Shown: positions 784-9,204, counted from the first letter of the stretch. The stretch is DNA of 9,212 nt from a virus (IMGVR_UViG_2657244931_000007); one strand, 5' to 3'. Numbers and translations: made by a program. Notes: generated from the sequence alone by a model not told the origin.

Positions 784-828
784 AAAAGCCCCTTAATGTA
801 TCGATTTGGCACTACTTCAATGCAAATG

Positions 829-858
829 AGTATACCGTATTCATTTGGTCTGTTTCAA
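829..858 (-). promoter_or_regulatory. Candidate sigma70 promoter for the recombinase gene (-35 TTGAAA, 18-bp spacer, -10 TATACT on the minus strand)
   Basis: Reverse complement of 853..858 is TTGAAA and of 829..834 is TATACT; sits about 45 bp upstream of the recombinase start codon. Confidence 0.35.
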
Positions 859-910
859 GCCTTATAGGTACGGAATATTACACGATTTAGCTGTATTCAT
901 TTGGTATGCC
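835..910. repeat. Direct repeats GTATTCATTTGGT (837..849 and 893..905) just upstream of the recombinase gene; candidate recombinase site (res-like) or operator
   Basis: 13-bp identical direct repeats 56 bp apart, overlapping the predicted recombinase promoter region. Confidence 0.4.
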
Positions 911-1352
911 TAATGGATACACAGGGGGATAGATTAAATGGTGTTCTGTTTATACAGGTTTATTTGTTAGATCAACAATTTGGCATTTCTAAACAGATGT
1001 TTGAACGTTGCCAAATGTATTGACAACACAAGAAAAGGGCTTGCTATGCCACGCATTACACGAAATAAGGCTGTAAAAACAAAATAAATTTTAAAATTTG
1101 CACAAACAAGAAAACTCGTTCAGAAACAAGCAGAACAATTTTTAGCCAACAATTTCTGATGGTGCTCTGTAAGCCGCATTACACAAGGCTTTGCGAAAGT
1201 GATGTAAAAGTGAAGAAAGTTAACATTGCACTTTTAAGCTACTTTTCATTGAATTTTTAGTATGGAATTACACAGGAATAAGTTAGGGATATTCTATGAT
1301 TTACACAGGGAATATAGGGGGATTATGGCACACACATAGAAAGGCATTACAC
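877..1352 (+). repeat. Dispersed array of an ATTACAC(A/G) motif, same orientation (copies at 877, 1055, 1178, 1267, 1299(TTTACAC), 1346; partial ATACACAGG at 917)
   Basis: At least 6 copies in about 480 bp, irregular spacing, often extended to cATTACACagg; candidate protein-binding iterons. Confidence 0.55.
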
Positions 1353-1510
1353 AGAGTGCTATGTGACAAATGGATGTAACGAGAGGTTACATTCAGCTAT
1401 CTGAAATGCTCTCTGTAAGAAAGTAGGTAGTAACGGTAGGTCACTGTGAGCTACCCCCACAGAATTCTGTTACCCCTATCAAGTCTGATACCCGATAAGT
1501 ATAAATAACA

Positions 1511-1611
1511 CCTAGGAAATGATTTCCGATCTATTTAGGAAGTAACCTAGGAAGTGGTTTCCTACCTACTTAGGAAATGAGTTCCTACCTACCTAGGAAA
1601 TGAGTTCCACC
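1511..1611. repeat. Iteron cluster: four copies of a 13-bp palindromic core GGAA(A/G)TG(A/G)(T/G)TTCC with shared CCTA...TACC flanks
   Basis: Cores at 1515..1527 (perfect palindrome GGAAATGATTTCC), 1550..1562, 1573..1585, 1596..1608; the last three centres are 23 bp apart. Confidence 0.7.
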
Positions 1612-1672
1612 AATACTATAATTAAATACTATAATTAAATAATATAAATAATATTCTTTATACTATATATAT
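1612..1672. repeat. Very AT-rich tract with tandem ATACTATAATTAA x2 (1613..1625, 1626..1638); candidate DNA-unwinding element next to the iterons
   Basis: Almost pure A/T directly 3' of the iteron cluster. Confidence 0.5.
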
Positions 1673-1680
1673 GATCTTTT

Positions 1681-1860
1681 GCCTTCCGGCGTTAGCTTCA
1701 CTCTCTGGCAAGCAGCCTTACTCCGCTACCTTTCGGGCTTCGTGGCTGGCCCGTTCCGCTCACACCGAAAGCAAAGCGTTACTTTCTTCGTGTAACTATC
1801 GTTGGCGGTAACGCCCACGAAGAAATACTATTGCGCTGTGCGCAGAAGAGTAATCACCTA
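1681..1860. other. GC-rich island with nested stem-loops; candidate structured non-coding RNA or structured DNA site (strand unknown)
   Basis: Clearly GC-richer than the flanks. 9-bp stem TTCTTCGTG (1784..1792) / CACGAAGAA (1816..1824) encloses GGCG-GTAA-CGCC (1804..1815; GNRA-type tetraloop); second stem CTTTCGG (1730..1736) / CCGAAAG (1765..1771). Confidence 0.35.
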
Positions 1861-1898
1861 ACCAATCATACTGATTGCTACCAATCATACTGATTGCT
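1861..1898. repeat. Perfect tandem duplication of a 19-bp unit ACCAATCATACTGATTGCT, each with internal inverted repeat CAATCA-TAC-TGATTG; candidate operator for a dimeric DNA-binding protein
   Basis: Units at 1861..1879 and 1880..1898 are identical; 6-bp arms with 3-bp spacer inside each. Confidence 0.7.
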
Positions 1899-1923
1899 TA
1901 CGTGTTAACTCTCTCTAACTCTT

Positions 1924-2081
1924 AATTCCACTTCCTACATTTAATAACTCTCGTTATTCTCTGTAGTTGTGTAATTACTCGAAGAGAGAGCGGCTAAAGC
2001 TCAATTACACTCTGCTTTCCTCGTGTAATTTCACTAAGCCTCAATACAATTCCACTTCCTACATTCTGTAGTCGTGTAATT
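1924..2081. repeat. Duplicated module AATTCCACTTCCTACATT + CTGTAG(T/C)(T/C)GTGTAATT; copy 1 is split by a 19-bp hairpin-forming insertion
   Basis: 18-mer identical at 1924..1941 and 2048..2065; 16-mer at 1961..1976 and 2066..2081 (one mismatch); 1942..1960 TAATAACTCTCGTTATTCT is present only in copy 1 and contains AATAAC/GTTATT inverted arms. GTGTAAT (reverse complement of ATTACAC) at 1969, 2023, 2074 and 1790 (GTGTAAC); forward AATTACAC at 2003. Confidence 0.65.
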
Positions 2082-2083
2082 GT

Positions 2084-2115
2084 TTTCGGTGGAAAAGCCA
2101 GAGGCGACACCGAAA
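2084..2115. other. Hairpin TTTCGGTG-N16-CACCGAAA; its 3' arm shares the 10-mer ACACCGAAAG with the hairpin at 1730..1771
   Basis: Perfect 8-bp inverted arms at 2084..2091 and 2108..2115; ACACCGAAAG at 1762..1771 and 2107..2116. Confidence 0.5.
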
Positions 2116-2125
2116 GAGAATTCTG

Positions 2126-2210
2126 ATCTTATTAATCTTATCTATCTTAGTTAATCTTCTTACTTATCTTACTTACTTATCTTACTTTATCTACTTTATT
2201 ATTAATAATA
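2126..2210. repeat. G-depleted T-rich tract of degenerate CTTATCT / TACTTA repeats
   Basis: Only one G (2150) in 85 bp on the plus strand; strong strand asymmetry. Confidence 0.6.
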
Positions 2211-2234
2211 GCTTTATAAGCTCTCTGTAGCTCT

Positions 2235-2294
2235 CTGACGCAAGAAACAGCATTCAGGAAGGGAATCACCTTAGAAAAGTGTTCTTTGCGTCAT
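2235..2294. other. Imperfect inverted repeat CTGACGCAAGAA ... TTCTTTGCGTCA, about 38 bp apart
   Basis: Arms at 2235..2246 and 2282..2294, near-complementary with a one-base indel. Confidence 0.35.
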
Positions 2295-2610
2295 AATGTG
2301 TTTTATGAAGGATTCAGAGGTGTTTCATAACAGGAGTGTATAGAGGATATTTTAATTAATTAAAAATAAGGGGTCTAAATGCTTCTCTAACAACATTAAG
2401 CAGGGTAGGGAATGGAAACGCATTGCCTACACATATAAGCTCACTACAGAGCTTTACAGAGCGTTTTATAAAGTAACTCTCTATCTTATATCTACCATTA
2501 CCTTTTCATATACCTAACAAATACAAAATAAGCCCCTTAAATAAGCCTCTGGCGAGCTAAACAGCCATTACATAAGGGAATGTGTTGCTTTTATCAAAAC
2601 TTCGTTAGAA

Positions 2611-2631
2611 CGCGTTTTAGAGCGTTTTAGA
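2611..2631. repeat. Tandem GCGTTTTAGA x2, with a related AGAGCGTTTTA copy at 2458..2468
   Basis: 2612..2621 and 2622..2631 are identical 10-mers. Confidence 0.5.
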
Positions 2632-2691
2632 CAATAAGGAGGAATAGCACTACACAGAAGAGCACGAATTGCTAAGAAAAAATGTAAGTGC

Positions 2692-2753
2692 ATGAAAAAG
2701 ATCAGATTTTTTTATGAAAAGGTATTGACAAATGTTTCTTTATATGTAATAAT
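2692..2753 (+). promoter_or_regulatory. Early-operon promoter: -35 TTGACA (2725..2730), 17-bp spacer, extended -10 TGtAATAAT (2745..2753); direct repeats ATGAAAA(A/G)G (2692..2700, 2714..2722) upstream and AGGTATT (2720..2726, 2754..2760) bracketing the core
   Basis: Perfect -35 hexamer, 17-bp spacing, TG-extended -10, about 110 bp upstream of the first plus-strand gene. Confidence 0.55.
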
Positions 2754-2807
2754 AGGTATTAGAGGGACAGAAAACATTCTTCTCTAAATAATCAAAATCA
2801 ACGCACT

Positions 2808-2843
2808 TTGAAGCCGTCAGGCTTGCAAGGTGTTTTTTCTTTT
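2808..2843 (+). terminator. Leader hairpin plus T-run between promoter and first gene; attenuator-like
   Basis: Stem AAGCC (2811..2815) / GGCTT (2820..2824) with loop GTCA, extendable with mismatches; palindrome CTTGCAAG at 2822..2829; T-run 2833..2843, directly upstream of the RBS AAGGAG (2852..2857). Confidence 0.3.
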
Positions 2844-2862
2844 AACTGAATAAGGAGTTTTT

Positions 2863-3075: not shown

Positions 3076-3264
3076 ATGAATATTAATTTTGATTCTGCAA
3101 CTTATAACGCGTTGTTAAATCGCGCAAAGGCAGAAGGGAAATCAATTCCAAAACTTGTTAATGAACTACTAATTACAGTCCTTACAAAGGAGGAACTAAA
3201 TGATCAAAAATATCAAAACAATTGCCGAAGCGAAAGCCAAATGTCTAAATCAGAAAGATGGTAA
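3076..3264 (+). CDS. Ribbon-helix-helix (Arc/Mnt/CopG-like) DNA-binding protein, 62 aa; putative transcriptional repressor
   Basis: MNINFDSATYNALLNRAKAEGKSIPKLVNELLITVL fits a beta-strand / helix / helix RHH pattern; RBS AAGGAG at 3062..3067; 3' end overlaps the next gene by 65 nt. Confidence 0.65.
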   Translation: MNINFDSATYNALLNRAKAEGKSIPKLVNELLITVLTKEELNDQKYQNNCRSESQMSKSERW

Positions 3265-3931
3265 ACAAAAATATGTAGTTGTTGAGCAATGGTTGAAGAT
3301 GTTTAAAAAATGGTATTCACCATCTGGTAATGAATACACCGCTACACTGCCAGCCGTTGAAATCTATAGCTATATAGCTGGATTCAATGAACAAGGGCAA
3401 GAATGTTACGCTACTCAAAAAACATTAGCTAATATTGGAATGGTTAGTGATCGCCAGGTTCGCAATATTATAAATATGTTTGTTGATATGGGAGTTCTTT
3501 CTGTAGAGGCACGGGACGGTCAAACATCACTCTATAAAGCATTACCATTTACAGATGCACATATTACTCCCCCAGGAGAATCATCACTCTCTGATCTTTC
3601 TGAGGCAGAAGAAGCACAGGAACAACCTAAAGGCCATAAACAGCCTTCTTTTGATGTTCTTGATGATTGGGATGCGCCTTTGCCGTGGGAGACGGAAGAA
3701 ACACCTGTTTCATCAAGTGAAAAGGTAGCTAATGATAATGAGGAGGATGTGTTAGAGAATTTTGCCTCTCTTATCATCCAGGAGAAACACACACGAACAG
3801 GAGGAGCATCATTTATTGAGTTTGCAAATTCACTAGCTTGTAGATACGGGCTAAAACGACCAAATGGTATTGAGGCATATTTTTCTAAGCATTACCCAAA
3901 TGTATATGACGACTTTGATATTCCATTTTAA
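3200..3931 (+). CDS. Winged-helix-like DNA-binding protein with acidic C-terminal region, 243 aa; candidate replication initiator or regulator
   Basis: Strong RBS AAGGAGG (3187..3193), 6-nt spacing; segment YATQKTLANIGMVSDRQVRNIINMFVDMGVLSVEA resembles a wHTH; C-terminal half is acidic and low-complexity (SEAEEAQEQ ... DDWDAPLPWETEE). Confidence 0.75.
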   Translation: MIKNIKTIAEAKAKCLNQKDGKQKYVVVEQWLKMFKKWYSPSGNEYTATLPAVEIYSYIAGFNEQGQECYATQKTLANIGMVSDRQVRNIINMFVDMGVLSVEARDGQTSLYKALPFTDAHITPPGESSLSDLSEAEEAQEQPKGHKQPSFDVLDDWDAPLPWETEETPVSSSEKVANDNEEDVLENFASLIIQEKHTRTGGASFIEFANSLACRYGLKRPNGIEAYFSKHYPNVYDDFDIPF

Positions 3932-5098: not shown

Positions 5099-5103
5099 AA
5101 AAA

Positions 5104-5120
5104 GCAACAAAAAAGTTGTA
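5104..5120. promoter_or_regulatory. 17-bp element GCAACAAAAAAGTTGTA (CAAC-N6-GTTG inverted repeat), copy 1, 7 bp upstream of the late -35
   Basis: 15/17 identical to the copy at 5390..5406. Confidence 0.5.
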
Positions 5121-5127
5121 AAATATC

Positions 5128-5156
5128 TTGACATTTCATATATTGTATGTTAATAT
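5128..5156 (+). promoter_or_regulatory. Late-operon promoter: -35 TTGACA (5128..5133), 17-bp spacer, TG-extended -10 TAATAT (5151..5156)
   Basis: Same architecture as the early promoter at 2725. Confidence 0.55.
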
Positions 5157-5162
5157 AATTAT

Positions 5163-5380
5163 ATAGGGGTGATTATTTTTCCTTTATTGGTTCGATATTA
5201 AAAATTCTTCTTGTCGTTAAAGGGGAGTAAAATCTCCGCTCCCCGCTTCTCCTCCTCCTTAAGTGTCATTATTACCTCTTTTTTCCTTTGTTATGCATAC
5301 ATCTTGGAGTATGCATAACATAGGGTAATTACATAGGTACAAGTTAATAAAAGGCGGCTTTAAATGCTGCCTTTTATTTT
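5163..5380 (+). ncRNA. Candidate ~215-nt leader or small RNA from the late promoter to the intrinsic terminator
   Basis: Contains hairpin GGGGAG/CTCCCC (5222..5244), CU-rich anti-SD-like tract CTTCTCCTCCTCCTT (5246..5260), perfect 11-bp inverted repeat GTTATGCATAC-N8-GTATGCATAAC (5290..5319), and ends at the terminator 5352..5380; no convincing ORF inside. Confidence 0.35.
5352..5380 (+). terminator. Rho-independent terminator (stem AGGCGGC / GCUGCCU with one G-U pair, loop UUUAAAU, then UUUUAUUUU)
   Basis: 7-bp stem at 5352..5358 / 5366..5372, followed by the T-run 5373..5380. Confidence 0.55.
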
Positions 5381-5389
5381 GCCCGTTAT

Positions 5390-5406
5390 GCAACTTAAAA
5401 GTTGTA
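5390..5406. promoter_or_regulatory. 17-bp element GCAACTTAAAAGTTGTA, copy 2, just past the leader terminator and 37 bp upstream of the 5443 gene
   Basis: 15/17 identical to the copy at 5104..5120. Confidence 0.5.
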
Positions 5407-5442
5407 TTTCTTACTTTAAACAAGGTAACAAGGTTTATATAA

Positions 5443-5655
5443 ATGTTGTTCTTAAATGATAAAGAGCAAATCATCAAGTATAAAGATGAAATGCTGAAAA
5501 TTAATCCACAAATTACCGAAATGGTAGCTAAATACGCTGGGTGTTCTGTCGAGGAAGTAGAAAGATGTGTTGAAAAATATTTTTCTCCTTCTTCTCCGTC
5601 TACACCTTCCCTTAATGAATTAATCAAATTAAAAGCTAAGGAGATTACTAAATGA
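5443..5655 (+). CDS. Hypothetical protein, 70 aa, first gene of the structural operon
   Basis: ATGA start/stop overlap with the next gene suggests translational coupling; weak SD AAGG upstream. Confidence 0.6.
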   Translation: MLFLNDKEQIIKYKDEMLKINPQITEMVAKYAGCSVEEVERCVEKYFSPSSPSTPSLNELIKLKAKEITK

Positions 5656-6023
5656 TTATTGATTTAGACACTCTTTTTCCAAGTCGAAAGACGTTTACAG
5701 ATCTGGTGGCTTATTGTACTGATCCGTTTGCCTCTGTAGAAAACAAGGTTTTTGCTTCTCTTCCTGCTGATGTTGAATGCGGAGACTTGATCACCAGCAC
5801 TGGCGCTAAATATGAATCAGGAGATGATATCTATGTTGTTATGAGTGAATTTGTAACTGCTGATTCAAATAAAACAGTTAACGTGCTTCGTGCTAATGCC
5901 GGACTCGTTTGCATCAAAGCTGATGCCCTGAATGCCGAAGGCGCTGTAAAAGAAGCTGCTATTGCAGCTCTCGCTGCTAAAGGCTTCCAGCTTGAAGGCT
6001 TTAATACGGTTTTCACTTCTTAA
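5652..6023 (+). CDS. Hypothetical protein, 123 aa; decoration-protein-like by position and size only
   Basis: RBS AAGGAG at 5638..5643; immediately upstream of the capsid-like gene; no sequence resemblance to a known decoration protein was recognised. Confidence 0.7.
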   Translation: MIIDLDTLFPSRKTFTDLVAYCTDPFASVENKVFASLPADVECGDLITSTGAKYESGDDIYVVMSEFVTADSNKTVNVLRANAGLVCIKADALNAEGAVKEAAIAALAAKGFQLEGFNTVFTS

Positions 6024-6041
6024 TAAAAGGAATAATAATAA

Positions 6042-7070
6042 ATGATTCTAGGTAATGATTACGTTGATTTAGCTCCTCTGTTCTCTGCGCATAGCACTAG
6101 AAATTATCTGCTTTCTACTCTTGATTTTACGGATTCTGTAGGGGTTACATCTCATAAAGTAGCTGTTTCCCAGCTTGTCGAAAGCAACGAATCTCTCTTT
6201 AACAAAGAGACAAGCCGTTTTAGTTCTGAACACAATGTTACTAAGCGAGAACAAGGTAAAGAATGGCTGATCGAAATCCCTTACTTCCTGCGTGAGGATG
6301 TTATCCGTCCCTCTGATGTTCAAGGCAAACGTAAGTCTGGCACTGATTTTCAGGAAACACTCACTGATATTTATGCGGAATATATCGCTAAACACCACGT
6401 AGCGTATCAGCGCACTAAAGAGAGCGTGCTGGCGGCTTCTTTGTTCTCTGGCAAAACTTACACGCCTAAAACTGATGATGTGTTAATTGAGTGGGGCAAG
6501 CTGTTTAACGTATCAGCTATGAAAGCCACTGTGAACGCCTCCAGCACTGACACCACGAAGATTTTTAAAGAATTTGATCAGATTGCTACTGACATTATCG
6601 AAAAAGCACAAAGCCAGGCGGCTGCTGTAGAGCGTATTGTTGTTTTCTGTAAGCCGGAAGCCTTCTCTGCAATTCGATTCTCTGCTGGTATGGCAAACGC
6701 ATTCCAGTACGTAAGCCCACTGGAAGAAGGGAACGTTGTGTATCAGCGTCGTGACCTGCTACCAGGAGTGACAGCGTTCACTATTCCAGGAACTAACATT
6801 GATGTTGTTAAACTGGTAGATCCGCTACACCTGGCACATATGACCGCAGACGCTGTAGCTGTGCCTAAATTCGCTAAAGGCTCTAACGTATATCAGAACA
6901 TCTACGGGGCTGCTTCCAGCACCTTTGAACTGATCAATGCCGATCCTACTGAGGTGTACAGCTATAGCTATGAATCTTCTCGTGGTGATGCTGTGAACGT
7001 TGTTACAGAGAATAGCCAGATGGTTGTAAACCACGGTGTAGGCTTCTCCGTTCAAATCACTGTTAAATAA
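6042..7070 (+). CDS. Putative phage major capsid protein, 342 aa (possibly lambda gpE-like; tentative)
   Basis: Size, beta-rich composition, and a strong intrinsic terminator directly downstream, as often seen after major capsid genes. Short segments (LAASLFSGKTYTPK, DLLPGVTAFTIPG) loosely recall lambda gpE from memory; not verified. Confidence 0.45.
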   Translation: MILGNDYVDLAPLFSAHSTRNYLLSTLDFTDSVGVTSHKVAVSQLVESNESLFNKETSRFSSEHNVTKREQGKEWLIEIPYFLREDVIRPSDVQGKRKSGTDFQETLTDIYAEYIAKHHVAYQRTKESVLAASLFSGKTYTPKTDDVLIEWGKLFNVSAMKATVNASSTDTTKIFKEFDQIATDIIEKAQSQAAAVERIVVFCKPEAFSAIRFSAGMANAFQYVSPLEEGNVVYQRRDLLPGVTAFTIPGTNIDVVKLVDPLHLAHMTADAVAVPKFAKGSNVYQNIYGAASSTFELINADPTEVYSYSYESSRGDAVNVVTENSQMVVNHGVGFSVQITVK

Positions 7071-7089
7071 TATTTTAACGTGTAATAGA

Positions 7090-7123
7090 GGCGTGGCGTG
7101 TATTCACGCTTCGCCTTTTTTTT
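7090..7123 (+). terminator. Strong rho-independent terminator after the capsid-like gene
   Basis: GC-rich stem GGCGTGGCGTG / CACGCTTCGCC (7090..7115) with TATT loop, followed by 8 Ts (7116..7123) and more T-rich sequence. Confidence 0.75.
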
Positions 7124-7156
7124 ATTTATTTTTAAATTTTGAGAGGTGATTAAAAT

Positions 7157-7360
7157 ATGGAAGTGATTTTGAAATCAAAAAATGGTGTACACGTACATTT
7201 AGATGCTAATGATTCTAGAGGCTTGTTAAATCTGAAATATCTATGTTCTCTCTTAGATGTTCCATATGAAGGCGTAAAAGCCCGTATGTTCAGACTAAAC
7301 GAGAGTATTGATCAGGCTCTACACCATTTCTTAAGCAAAGAAGGTGATAAAAATGATTAA
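7157..7360 (+). CDS. Hypothetical protein, 67 aa
   Basis: RBS GAGAGGTGA at 7141..7149; only about 34 bp after the terminator, so likely expressed by read-through. Confidence 0.6.
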   Translation: MEVILKSKNGVHVHLDANDSRGLLNLKYLCSLLDVPYEGVKARMFRLNESIDQALHHFLSKEGDKND

Positions 7361-7374
7361 TAAGGGGATTTTAA

Positions 7375-9204
7375 ATGTTAGAAATTAACACTTCTAAAAT
7401 TAAGAACACAGTAACATTTAGTGTAGATAAAGACAGCTTGAAAAAAGCGAAAGACTCTATTACAGGCTTAAAGGAATTCGCAGAAAACATCAAGCCAGCT
7501 AAATTAAGATTTGATAATGTCACTAAAGGCTATAAGAAAGCACAAAGTGAAGTAGATAAGATTGCTCAACAGAAAGCCAAAACAGAAAAGCAGAATCAAA
7601 GAGCACAAGCTGCCGCAGCAAGAGCACAGGCAAGGCAACAGGCACAAATAGCAGCACGTAAAGAGAAAGCAGAATTAAAACTGTTAGACGTTGGATCAAG
7701 CATTAGTGCAATGCACCGTCTCTCTGTAGCGGAACAATACAAAGCTATTGCACAGGCTAGAGAGATAGCAAAACAATACGAACAAGGCGCTATCAGCTTG
7801 GCGCGTATGAATAGCCAGATGAAACGCCTACAACAACAACAACGTAAGATTAATGGCAACCGAAAAGCACAATTTGCCCCCGTTAAAGGAGGATCAGGGA
7901 ATTCCGCCACTATGGGCGCTCTGTTATTTGGAGGCGCTACGGCTGCTGCTGGCGTGATGGCTGTTAGTAAAACCTCTGAATTTATGGCTAATAGCTTTGC
8001 GAATGCTGAAACACAAGGAGAATTAATCCAACGTGCAAGGCTTGGCGGTGTAGACGTTAACCAGATGTACAACATTACAGAATGGGCGTATAAAAACGGC
8101 GTTGATTCTATGATGGGTGATCAAGGGGCTAGGAAATACCTGGATCAGATGAAAGATGTTAGGGAACGTGCCGCAAAATCCTACAGTGAAGCTGAATTGG
8201 TGAAAGACAAGAAAGGAAAATCTGAATGGAAAGGCGGTGATAACGCTATTAATGAACTTCTAAACATCGGTGTTATTAACAAAAGCGACCTTAAAAAATT
8301 TGCTGATAATCCGGCTGGATTAATTTCTAAGGCTGTTAATGGAATGATGAAAAAAGGGTTTTCAGACTCCCAAATTGGACAACGTTTAGAAGACCTGGGC
8401 GATGATTTGATGCTTACATCAAAATATTGGCAACGTTCCGTTAAAGATGTACAAGAAAGTATTAATCAGCAAAAAGCCTCTGGAAAATGGCTAACAGAAA
8501 CACAGCAAGACTCTATTGTTAAATTCAGAGAACTAAACAGACAGCTTTCACAGCTTTCTGATGCAAGACAAGTAGCATTCGTAGACGGGTTTATGAAATC
8601 TCTTGATCCAAAAGTAACGGAAGAGTTTATGAAAAACCTTTCTAATCTCACTCCGTATTTTACGAAGCTTGGCGAAGCGTCTGGAAGTCTTTTTGAAGCT
8701 ATTATGAAGGTTGTAAACTGGTTTAATCGTAATGATGATAAGACAGATGCTATTCAGAAAAATATGGGAGATGCACCGCCATTAAGCAATGAAGGGATGA
8801 AACAGAATCTTTCTAATCTCGTTCCTGATCAATATAAAGGCGCTGGCACTGCAACAACTACACCTGATAATAGTCATTCTCTCTTTAACACGATTAAGGG
8901 ATGGCTTTTCGATGATAATGCTTCTTCTGTGTCAGATGTAAAAATGTCAGTCAGCGAAGCACCGATAACCAATCTCAAACAGGGTGCTTTAAATAATCTT
9001 GCAATGACAACTCCGGCTTATAATTTATCTCCTGTGTTTAATCTGAATCCTACATTTGAAGTGGTAACAGAAGTGCCTCTTACTATTAATTCTGACACGT
9101 CAAGATTAAGCGATTATGTGGATTTTACAGCGAGAGCAAGTCGGGATAGCTTCTTGAAATCATTAACATTAACCAGCTTATCAGGACAATCTAACGGCGG
9201 GTAA
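7375..9204 (+). CDS. Large virion-associated-type protein, 609 aa: coiled-coil Ala/Gln-rich N-terminus and a Gly/Ala-rich hydrophobic segment; tape-measure-like or internal/ejection protein (function uncertain)
   Basis: RBS AAGGGGA at 7361..7367; AQAAAARAQARQQAQIAARKEKAELK coiled-coil region; hydrophobic TMGALLFGGATAAAGVMAVS at about residues 180..200; ORF reaches the end of the window. Confidence 0.8.
   Translation: MLEINTSKIKNTVTFSVDKDSLKKAKDSITGLKEFAENIKPAKLRFDNVTKGYKKAQSEVDKIAQQKAKTEKQNQRAQAAAARAQARQQAQIAARKEKAELKLLDVGSSISAMHRLSVAEQYKAIAQAREIAKQYEQGAISLARMNSQMKRLQQQQRKINGNRKAQFAPVKGGSGNSATMGALLFGGATAAAGVMAVSKTSEFMANSFANAETQGELIQRARLGGVDVNQMYNITEWAYKNGVDSMMGDQGARKYLDQMKDVRERAAKSYSEAELVKDKKGKSEWKGGDNAINELLNIGVINKSDLKKFADNPAGLISKAVNGMMKKGFSDSQIGQRLEDLGDDLMLTSKYWQRSVKDVQESINQQKASGKWLTETQQDSIVKFRELNRQLSQLSDARQVAFVDGFMKSLDPKVTEEFMKNLSNLTPYFTKLGEASGSLFEAIMKVVNWFNRNDDKTDAIQKNMGDAPPLSNEGMKQNLSNLVPDQYKGAGTATTTPDNSHSLFNTIKGWLFDDNASSVSDVKMSVSEAPITNLKQGALNNLAMTTPAYNLSPVFNLNPTFEVVTEVPLTINSDTSRLSDYVDFTARASRDSFLKSLTLTSLSGQSNGG

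Follow-up and report, generated by a model that had tools for sequence, protein, structure and literature searches.

The replication origin of phage lambda consists of palindromic O-binding repeats, an AT-rich tract and then a palindrome-rich segment, while the O protein itself combines an N-terminal winged helix, a flexible linker and a C-terminal domain; among lambdoid relatives, iteron and initiator specificities swap together. Integrative phage satellites such as SaPI/PICI and the PLE of Vibrio cholerae encode their own initiators (those of SaPI and PLE carrying helicase or other enzymatic domains), have an origin of iterons and AT-rich DNA within non-coding sequence, and show allele-specific initiator-origin pairs. 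At the level of transcription, both lambda PR'-tR' and the P4 PLE leader place an intrinsic terminator between a strong promoter and the first gene. Features resembling each of these were found in a 9,212-nt stretch of viral DNA (IMGVR_UViG_2657244931_000007, one strand, referred to as the window, with positions counted from its first letter), more specifically in the gene-free gap that separates a recombinase gene from the downstream operon (positions 784–2862).

The best explanation of this gap takes it for neither a gene nor one large RNA: it probably serves an integrative, phage-satellite-like island of ~12.5 kb as its cis-acting control region, built as a string of separable DNA modules. 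An earlier description of the stretch, made without database searches (the sequence-only reading), had proposed a composite cis-acting locus with replication origin, recombinase site and operators, and possibly one or more non-coding RNAs; comparative evidence sustains the origin and the recombinase site, but not the operators and free RNAs. The recognised modules are each of a known kind. Apparently new are the satellite-like island setting, a five-way swap of specificity in which non-cognate sites are kept, and two unexplained conserved blocks.

The gene-free gap and its island

The window matched a chromosomal island of E. coli with up to 97.7% identity. In strain Res13-Lact-PEA14-20 this island, of which the window covers the left part, spans ~12.5 kb and is flanked by tRNA-Thr (thrW) and a tyrosine integrase, and the insertion sites of relatives comprise thrW, a tRNA-Gly and a position beside thiM. 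The phrase "compact mobile element" in the sequence-only reading was therefore apt, the element being a chromosomal satellite-like island at thrW. Of 5,426 complete E. coli genomes, 753 gave a match to the gap. A blastn search of the gap against phages (E<=1e-5) gave no match, and a search against plasmids returned two records only (i.e., a mislabelled chromosome and an E. coli plasmid). A scan of genome contigs for the first gene of the operon yielded Escherichia-type loci only, plus two false positives in high-GC metagenome-assembled genomes. As no description of the island was found in the searchable literature, it is apparently an undescribed, common phage-satellite-like element of E. coli.

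The claimed absence of any open reading frame (ORF) of at least 60 aa from 784–2862 was confirmed, the longest complete ORF measuring 46 aa. Among 1000 shuffles the longest ORF averaged 73 aa, 2% had a longest ORF as short as 46 aa and 21.5% lacked an ORF of at least 60 aa, so that the absence of ORFs is by itself only mildly unusual. The real anomaly is the length of the gap, i.e., 2079 nt compared to 11–344 nt for all other intergenic gaps in the window. Annotation with the Prokaryotic Genome Annotation Pipeline (PGAP) placed nothing within the gap in the E. coli genomes examined, and its small ORFs had no Pfam or PHROG hits; in relatives they were either disrupted or carried substitutions not concentrated at third codon positions. 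A hydrophobic 41-aa ORF (2568–2693, minus strand) was considered as a toxin and rejected on its non-coding substitution pattern (53/111/77 over the three codon positions vs. 78/25/138 for a control gene), and the equivalent frames in L004 contained early stop codons when the sequence was read by eye. More generally, small-protein genes and type I toxin loci were dismissed, no small ORF being conserved as coding sequence. A search of every family in Rfam 15 (E<=1) returned only two matches in the window, at chance level and located outside the gap, so that no C4- or CI-like antisense RNA was detected, and no tRNA or tmRNA was found.

Relatives were compared using 13 loci taken from complete genomes and a further 80 from metagenomes (~95 loci, numbered with the prefix L), with coverage figures derived from 55 distinct loci. 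The proposed BLASTN check yielded relatives in E. coli with the gap kept, and a gene-free gap of 1.4–2.1 kb was present in every variant examined. Two universal blocks, 1151–1250 (98% of the 55 loci, identity 90–92%) and 2551–2862 (98%, identity 81–91%), both exceeded the operon's first gene in conservation (identity 77–84% for that gene), while the rest of the gap was present in 22–66% of loci and swapped as cassettes. Since the layout is kept in relatives and two blocks are conserved above the adjacent gene, the repeat and module organisation exceeds chance.

The repeats that had been noticed from the sequence alone were also recovered, i.e., direct repeats at 1924 and 2048 (124 nt apart), palindromic iterons (GGAARTGRnTYCC at 1515, 1550, 1573 and 1596), tandem palindrome-containing units of 19 nt (1861–1898, 100% identical), a GC-rich island (1680–1860, GC 0.54 vs. 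0.36 for the region), a G-depleted tract (2110–2215, 6 G in 106 nt) and many copies of a short motif, ATTACAC. The latter occurs 11 times in the window (1.34 expected; 0 of 200 shuffles reached 11), with nine copies in 877–2080, mostly in plus orientation to the left of the origin described below and mostly in minus orientation to its right. Copies in the left part of the gap lie at 1055 and, further left, at 877.

Decayed coding sequence or neutral filler, with repeats generated by slippage and recombination, would accommodate the presence of 931–1107 and 1861–2534 in 36–50% of loci only, the varying repeat copy numbers, the cassettes that shift between hairpins and the low-complexity tract at 2110–2215. 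Nevertheless, such an origin of the gap is very improbable, given that the order of modules is fixed, that two blocks are conserved above the neighbouring gene and that the 1.4–2.1-kb gap persists in every variant examined. The small ORFs moreover lacked family hits, leaving no detectable gene remnants.

The candidate origin, its putative initiator and the res-like site

We read 1376–1680 as an iteron origin with a lambda-O-like initiator that would bind and fire it. The cognate array comprises four palindromic units (TAGGAARTGRnTYCCTA, 1510–1608) at a spacing of 23–35 bp, and is followed by a 72-nt AT-rich tract (1609–1680, GC 0.11) that is a candidate DNA-unwinding element and contains three 13-nt AT-rich tandem repeats (1612–1651). 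In 55 of 66 loci the 60-nt stretch of lowest GC in the gap was found next to the iterons (median 23 nt past the start of the last one), and likewise in 55 of 66 the order ran from iterons through the lowest-GC tract to the core of the GC-rich hairpin island, which lies a median 158 nt past the AT-rich tract. A CRISPR array was rejected as an identity for the repeats: the 17-nt palindromic units abut or overlap with a 23–35-nt period, and there is no cas gene.

The putative initiator is a 243-aa protein encoded on the plus strand at 3200–3931 (PF13730, E 1.5e-5), which matched phrog_270, 186, 391, 8102 and 428 (replication initiation, O-like or DnaD-like; E 4e-8 to 1e-3). Across the family its size is about 190–245 aa, and five alleles (R1–R5) differ in their N-terminal part while all matching the same PHROG families. 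An AlphaFold model of low overall confidence predicts a winged helix at residues 46–114 (helices 46–60, 73–80 and 84–97, strands 100–105 and 109–114), then an acidic, disordered linker and, at the C-terminus, a helical domain. The sequence had no match among solved structures, and a fold search retrieved generic winged-helix proteins only.

The pairing of initiator allele and iteron type is shown by co-variation. R1 is accompanied by iteron A (GGAARTGRnTYCC) in 22 of 23 loci, R2 by iteron B (ACAGAAnnYTGT) in 18 of 19, R3 by at least two copies of iteron D (GGTCAnnGTGARC) in 5 of 7, R4 by iteron E (TATYAnnnnTGATA) in all 10, and R5 by iteron C (GTAACGnnnGTTAC) in all 7. D arrays of at least two copies occurred in one of 59 other typed loci, with a further case in L013, where the initiator gene is split by IS1. 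The window itself is of type R1, with its four A units at 1515–1596, and also carries single non-cognate palindromes between 1376 and 1490 (i.e., C, GTAACGAGAGGTTAC, at 1376; D, GGTCACTGTGAGC, at 1438; B, ACAGAATTCTGT, at 1459; and E, TATCAAGTCTGATA, at 1476). The order of these single sites is fixed, and relatives amplify their own type to 3–5 copies at the matching position.

This co-variation of five alleles with five iteron types beside an AT-rich tract upholds the proposed replication origin, and the matches to phage replication-initiator families do the same for the winged-helix gene that had been named as its partner. The O-like protein, encoded 1.6 kb downstream, would bind the four iterons at 1510–1608 and open the adjacent 11%-GC tract at 1609–1680, from where replication could start. 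For the hairpin island beyond it, a more speculative role is that of assisting the origin, for instance by offering a priming or loading site once the DNA is unwound. In this regard, the PriA-type primosome consensus, which we take to be AAGCGG, resembles GAGCGG on the minus strand of the island core, an unverified lead.

The arrangement has the same order as the lambda origin (palindromic repeats beside an AT-rich tract, then a palindrome-rich segment), the initiator is predicted to share the domain order of O, and iteron and initiator specificities are exchanged together in the island family as in lambdoid phages. However, the lambda origin lies inside the O gene, whereas that of the island would lie 1.6 kb upstream of the initiator gene, in non-coding DNA and beyond the promoter. 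Moreover, the island has no recognisable counterpart of the P helicase loader, and its origins each keep single copies of the other four iteron types. The likeness to SaPI/PICI and PLE resides in an integrative satellite-type island with its own initiator, in an iteron and AT-rich origin within a non-coding stretch, and in allele-specific initiator-origin pairs. In contrast to the initiators of SaPI and PLE, that of the island looks like a pure DNA-binding and adaptor protein; furthermore, the gap of the island is far longer, with a res-like site and conserved blocks of unexplained role in addition, and the island has capsid and tail-type genes without a terminase.

At the left border of the gap, a small serine recombinase of 179 aa is encoded on the minus strand (244–783; PF00239 Resolvase, E 7.5e-34; phrog_125 "DNA invertase", E 7.7e-55). 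Directly upstream, 784–930 is a candidate res-like site with about three subsites of inverted 13-bp half-sites (TGTATYSATTTGG at 797, 837 and 892 on the plus strand, with inverted copies at 823 and 910). The inverted pairs were read as 797/823, 837/about 862 (with a weak right arm) and 892/910, with boundaries set by eye. The half-sites (797–924) adjoin the start of the recombinase gene (783) and overlap its promoter-like site (TTGAAA-18-TATACT, 858–829, minus strand). Recombinases of two types occur in the family, one of 179 aa and the other of 183/185 aa, each with its own upstream sequence, the second type having inverted GTGTRGTGAT half-sites at the equivalent place in an analogous layout; the sequence-only expectation of a recombinase site is thereby supported. 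A further module at 931–1139, present in 36–40% of loci, is linked to the 179-aa type and includes an inverted repeat (ATTTGGCA..TGCCAAAT, about 979–1018).

As judged from these half-sites, the layout of 784–930 resembles that of a resolvase res site. As in Tn3 and gamma-delta, the site is positioned directly upstream of the recombinase gene and over its promoter, it has several putative subsites of inverted ~12–13-bp half-sites at differing spacings, and half-site sequence shifts with recombinase type. Unlike Tn3 and gamma-delta, the island has no transposase partner, the number of subsites and the crossover point are inferred only, and the best profile hits of the recombinase are invertase-type. 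The recombinase would bind about three inverted-repeat subsites upstream of its own gene in res style, repress its own promoter, and resolve multimers of an excised, replicating circle.

The invertase-type hits bring up another possibility, namely that the gap is an invertible or rearranging switch in which the adjacent serine recombinase flips a promoter-bearing segment. Besides the top PHROG match ("DNA invertase"), weak hits of the recombinase to the Mpi master-invertase family, inverted repeats at 118–139 and 2739–2760, and an 11-nt hairpin loop that occurs in both orientations (in Block A, see below) would fit such a switch. However, none of 940 alignment segments (with the window, L004, L009 and L006 as references against the ~95 loci) ran on the opposite strand, which leaves it unsupported. 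The repeat at 118–139/2739–2760 was moreover not conserved in relatives and no better than shuffles, and the flipped loop is far below the size of an invertase substrate, its short flanking arms better fitting hairpin-mediated flipping. An invertible switch is hence extremely improbable. A run of about six 10-nt units in tandem (ATAAATAGCC / ATAAATACAT / CTAAATACCT; 85–147), just outside the recombinase gene on its 3' side, shows an apparent inverted match to the promoter spacer at 2739–2760, which is likewise not conserved in relatives.

Several observations weigh against the gap being an origin-bearing control region. The predicted initiator fold is generic, with TubR and MarR as top hits at E no better than 0.006 for a low-confidence model, and PGAP names one initiator allele a "LexA family transcriptional regulator". 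No recognisable helicase, primase or helicase loader was found in the island, and consensus sites for DnaA and IHF (as well as LexA) were not found within the region. The allele-iteron rule is broken by L080, L040, L047 and L094, the res-like subsite map derives from half-sites read by eye with a covariation test on two recombinase types only, and ~40% of the gap (Block A, 1861–2534 and upstream Block C) falls outside the assigned roles.

The resemblance to TubR, a plasmid centromere-binding protein, and to MarR-type repressors, together with the LexA-family name, would suit a reading in which 3200–3931 encodes a repressor or partition adaptor of the winged-helix type and the arrays are its operators or a centromere-like site, with the allele-specific repeats setting immunity or incompatibility groups. 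Dimeric repressors also typically use palindromic sites, and protein/site co-variation would be shown by any specific DNA-binding protein. On the other hand, all five alleles fall in the same PHROG families, nearly all of them annotated as replication initiation, O-like or DnaD-like, and the arrays adjoin an 11%-GC tract with 13-mer repeats, the lowest-GC stretch being so placed in 55 of 66 loci. The arrays would also make a poor operator because they are 1.1 kb away from the only strong promoter. Searches of Pfam with nine window proteins and of PHROGs with ten (including the 609-aa protein, which was run against PHROGs only; the 67-aa ORF at 7157–7360 was in neither set) brought up no ParA/TubZ-type NTPase, and the acidic linker and separate C-terminal domain of the initiator recall lambda O. 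A repressor or partition role is thus quite improbable, and the origin remains the favoured assignment for 1376–1680.

The leader terminator and the hairpin-rich middle

At the opposite border of the gap, the operon is preceded by a near-consensus sigma-70 promoter (TTGACA, a 17-nt spacer with TG, and AATAAT; 2725–2753, plus strand, 11 of 12 positions). The sequence TTGACAAA was invariant in alignments and present in every locus tested except L080, the -35 element being kept in all tested loci but one. Downstream of it, the leader contains a 5' stem-loop (2763–2785) with both-sides changes at several pairs, where the alignment is gappy, and a predicted intrinsic terminator (2803–2845), i.e., a 13-pair hairpin (2803–2833) followed by TTTTTTCTTTT. 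The T-run (2834–2844) is situated between this hairpin and the start of gene 1 (2863).

In 13 diverse sequences, 94% of cells in the terminator stem were paired, and two pairs had changed on both sides in a compensatory manner, which 6 of 500 shuffles equalled. In L029, G-C is changed to A-U and U-A to C-G; in L012 and L063 one pair was deleted on both sides. Two invariant G-U pairs are moreover possible only on the plus strand. This terminator, absent from the sequence-only list, is the only RNA element of the gap with real support. Since it precedes gene 1, the operon, including the initiator gene, sits behind an intrinsic terminator. The promoter would drive the operon via a ~100-nt leader, with the terminator keeping initiator and structural genes low until termination is overcome, presumably on infection by a helper phage.

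With lambda PR'-tR' and the P4 PLE leader it shares a strong, constitutive-looking promoter with an intrinsic terminator within ~100 nt, but no Q-, N- or CI-RNA-like partner was identified for the island, and its leader is much shorter than that of P4. The gene-1 protein gave a 17-bit hit to the NCBIfam model "RNA-binding regulator" (model cut-off 100), no hit by tblastn against phages, and an uninformative fold match.

For the proposed operators, no regulator-site pairing emerged. Promoter-spacer type was compared with the type of gene 2 (ribbon-helix-helix (RHH)-like) and showed no association with it, and the long-range inverted repeat at 118–139/2739–2760 was discarded as a paired operator for the lack of conservation noted above and for being no better than shuffles.

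Between origin and promoter lies the hairpin-rich middle of the gap. The GC-rich hairpin island (1680–1860) contains a universal core, CGCTCACA (1757–1764), and a hairpin, GCGCTGTGCGC (1833–1843), which are 68–78 nt apart in nearly all loci. It occurs as two sequence types with hairpins at equivalent places, and its folding z is -1.7 on the plus and -2.9 on the minus strand. The two tandem 19-nt units that follow (ACCAATCATACTGATTGCT, each palindromic; 1861–1898) are reduced to a single copy in some relatives. Then come four successive long hairpins or inverted repeats (1909–2115) with ATTACAC-like arms (1924+, 1969-, 2004+, 2023-, 2048+ and 2074-), which are particular to the window-type variant. 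Further downstream, the G-depleted tract (2110–2215) is rich in CTTA/ATCTTA and has low-period tandem repeats, and a variant-specific spacer (2216–2534) contains inverted repeats such as GACGCAAGAAACAG..GTGTTCTTTGCGTC at 2238–2293; both are present in ~49% of loci.

This middle (~1680–2450), or part of it, might give rise, most likely by minus-strand transcription, to a long structured non-coding RNA or to several, which would serve immunity, copy-number control or helper interference in the manner of the P4 CI RNA or plasmid antisense RNAs; such RNAs would be compatible with the origin. The strong folding of 1900–2115 (z of -6.95 on the minus and -4.79 on the plus strand, the minus strand being 15 kcal/mol better) and of the hairpin island (-2.9 on the minus strand of the window, and -3.5/-3.7 in L004) speaks for them, as do the two island types, which differ in sequence while hairpin positions and loop motifs are kept. 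However, across 25 distinct sequences the GTGTAATT arms were invariant and the opposite arms varied without compensation, and an apex cassette relocated between hairpins 1 and 3. The stems are nearly all Watson-Crick (0–2 G-U in 66 pairs), some relatives have ATAA in place of a GNRA-type loop (GGCG-GTAA-CGCC), and a CTTTCGG/CCGAAAG stem has lost a base in many. Furthermore, no Rfam family was matched even at E<=1, no promoter/terminator pair brackets the hairpin region, and the segment 1900–2450 is missing from about half of the family.

The free-standing non-coding RNAs suggested earlier therefore found no backing, nor did the accompanying Infernal check match any RNA family, and we consider them unlikely. 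Because of the uncompensated arms, the scarce G-U pairs, the unkept loop and stem, the blank Rfam search and the missing promoter/terminator pair, the favoured reading of the middle is one of DNA-level elements, i.e., inverted ATTACAC copies and hairpins beside the unwinding tract.

Conserved blocks and a possible tie to virulent phages

Block A (1140–1290), non-coding and universal, is the best-conserved stretch of the island's left half. It displays ATTACAC in the loop of a hairpin with a 5-bp stem (1171–1191), followed by an invariant stretch of 27 nt (1193–1219) and a second ATTACAC at 1267. The 11-nt loop (GCATTACACAA) was reverse-complemented in 3 of 46 distinct sequences (L038, L087 and L091), in differing backgrounds, which argues that the hairpin forms in vivo. 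An ORF overlapping the block (1159–1260) was intact in only 5 of 38 homologues, and the block had no match in phages or Rfam. In pattern scans of viral contigs, Block A and the island core co-occurred on most contigs, and the contigs examined in earlier scans are members of the same island family. Block A may be a signal for packaging, or may be bound by some factor that all variants have in common.

Upstream Block C (2535–2724) is likewise universal (98% of loci, identity 81–90%). Together with Block A it would constitute sites that every variant needs, with packaging signals and binding sites for helper or host factors as candidates. Upstream of the promoter it carries three direct repeats with a 10-bp period, TTAGAACGCG-TTTTAGAGCG-TTTTAGAC (2605–2632), and this 28-bp motif is shared with the untranslated DNA of T5-like phages, with a 42/47 match in Klebsiella phage KPN4 (E 2e-5) and 47/59 in phage SuperGirl. 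At E<=0.05, 118 phage records matched, mostly in the T5-like terminal-repeat or injection-stop region, and in one record the site is annotated as "similar to DNA injection stop signal".

In T5-like phages this region is, according to Davison, conserved, repeat-dense and untranslated, with paired DnaA boxes within IRD'-spacer-IRC' repeats (10.1101/866236). The island gap resembles the T5 Untranslated Repeat Region 3, or injection stop signal (iss), as a repeat-dense gene-free stretch of ~1–2 kb and in the common motif TTAGAAYGCG-TTTTAGAGCG-TTTTAGA, to which SuperGirl adds an adjacent CACTACACAGAA. However, the paired DnaA boxes were not found in the window (no TTWTNCACA on either strand), so that the island does not carry an iss; the similarity is moreover confined to about 30–60 nt, and the tail-type genes of the island resemble those of ~148-kb myophages rather than T5.

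The motif also occurs in a ~165-nt conserved intergenic element of ~145–150-kb myophages. Klebsiella phage phi1_175008 carries it and has a tape measure resembling a 609-aa protein of the island, which shows 30–36% identity to the tape measures of ~148-kb Phapecoctavirus/Justusliebigvirus myophages. In addition, a "baseplate" gene directly past the window end is 61% identical to the neighbour of the tape-measure gene in phi92-like Justusliebigvirus phages. Motif and tail genes together suggest a tie between the island and large virulent phages. As for the ~165-nt element itself, it is kept across PVP-SE1-like, Klebsiella, Cronobacter and Pectobacterium phages, often in two copies per genome (e.g., L119 1425–1625 and L120 1440–1600, from Klebsiella phage KP2025 and Cronobacter phage EspYZU14); it carries no annotation, and four phage loci gave no Rfam match.

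The gene content of the island was derived from PGAP annotation together with Pfam and PHROG searches of the window proteins. In window orientation its left end is ~1.2 kb with one tiny ORF. The plus-strand operon starts with a 62-aa protein, a 62-aa RHH-like protein, the 243-aa HTH_36 protein (i.e., the putative initiator) and small unknown genes, and later includes a lambda-E-type major capsid protein (PF03864) and the 609-aa tape-measure-like protein (phrog_16051). No terminase or portal gene was annotated in the island. The capsid and tail-type genes were noted at window 5652–9204 and L002 29230–31302. A small gene precedes the capsid gene at the place of the lambda decoration gene (an analogy by position only), and the short tape measure could mean an altered tail length.

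After the capsid gene, a terminator-like hairpin (GAGGCGTGGCGTGTATTCACGCTTCGCCTTTTTTT, 7082–7159) gave an Rfam match to caiA RNA at chance level (E 0.15, well under the gathering score). The second-largest gap of the window (5099–5442, 344 nt) lies between a 120-aa and a 70-aa gene and is pyrimidine-rich on the plus strand. One relative, at the thiM site, has a GmrSD-type restriction gene beside its integrase, and in others IS1 has inserted into the initiator gene or close to it (coordinates of this cargo and damage: L003 8412–9983; L005 14301–14998; L013 3109–3806).

A bolder proposal, which we put forward tentatively and as rather doubtful, is that the island is an undescribed E. coli satellite of large virulent phages and its non-coding region a platform for sensing and hijacking the helper. 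If so, a helper or host factor would act via Blocks A and C, either switching on the terminator-gated operon or marking the DNA for packaging, and the "palette" of five iterons would allow a lineage to change its initiator specificity through amplification of a single site that it already has.

About one in seven complete E. coli genomes carries a member of this island family, with a gap that is left without annotation. The five-fold initiator/iteron swap, with single non-cognate sites in fixed order, constitutes a natural experiment in the change of origin specificity, and predicts differences between cognate and non-cognate sites in binding and replication. The terminator-gated strong promoter likewise offers a handle on island induction, and the common motif connects a chromosomal island to conserved non-coding elements of T5-like phages and large myophages. 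If the island were indeed a satellite of virulent coliphages such as those in therapy collections, its control region would matter for the outcome of phage-host encounters.

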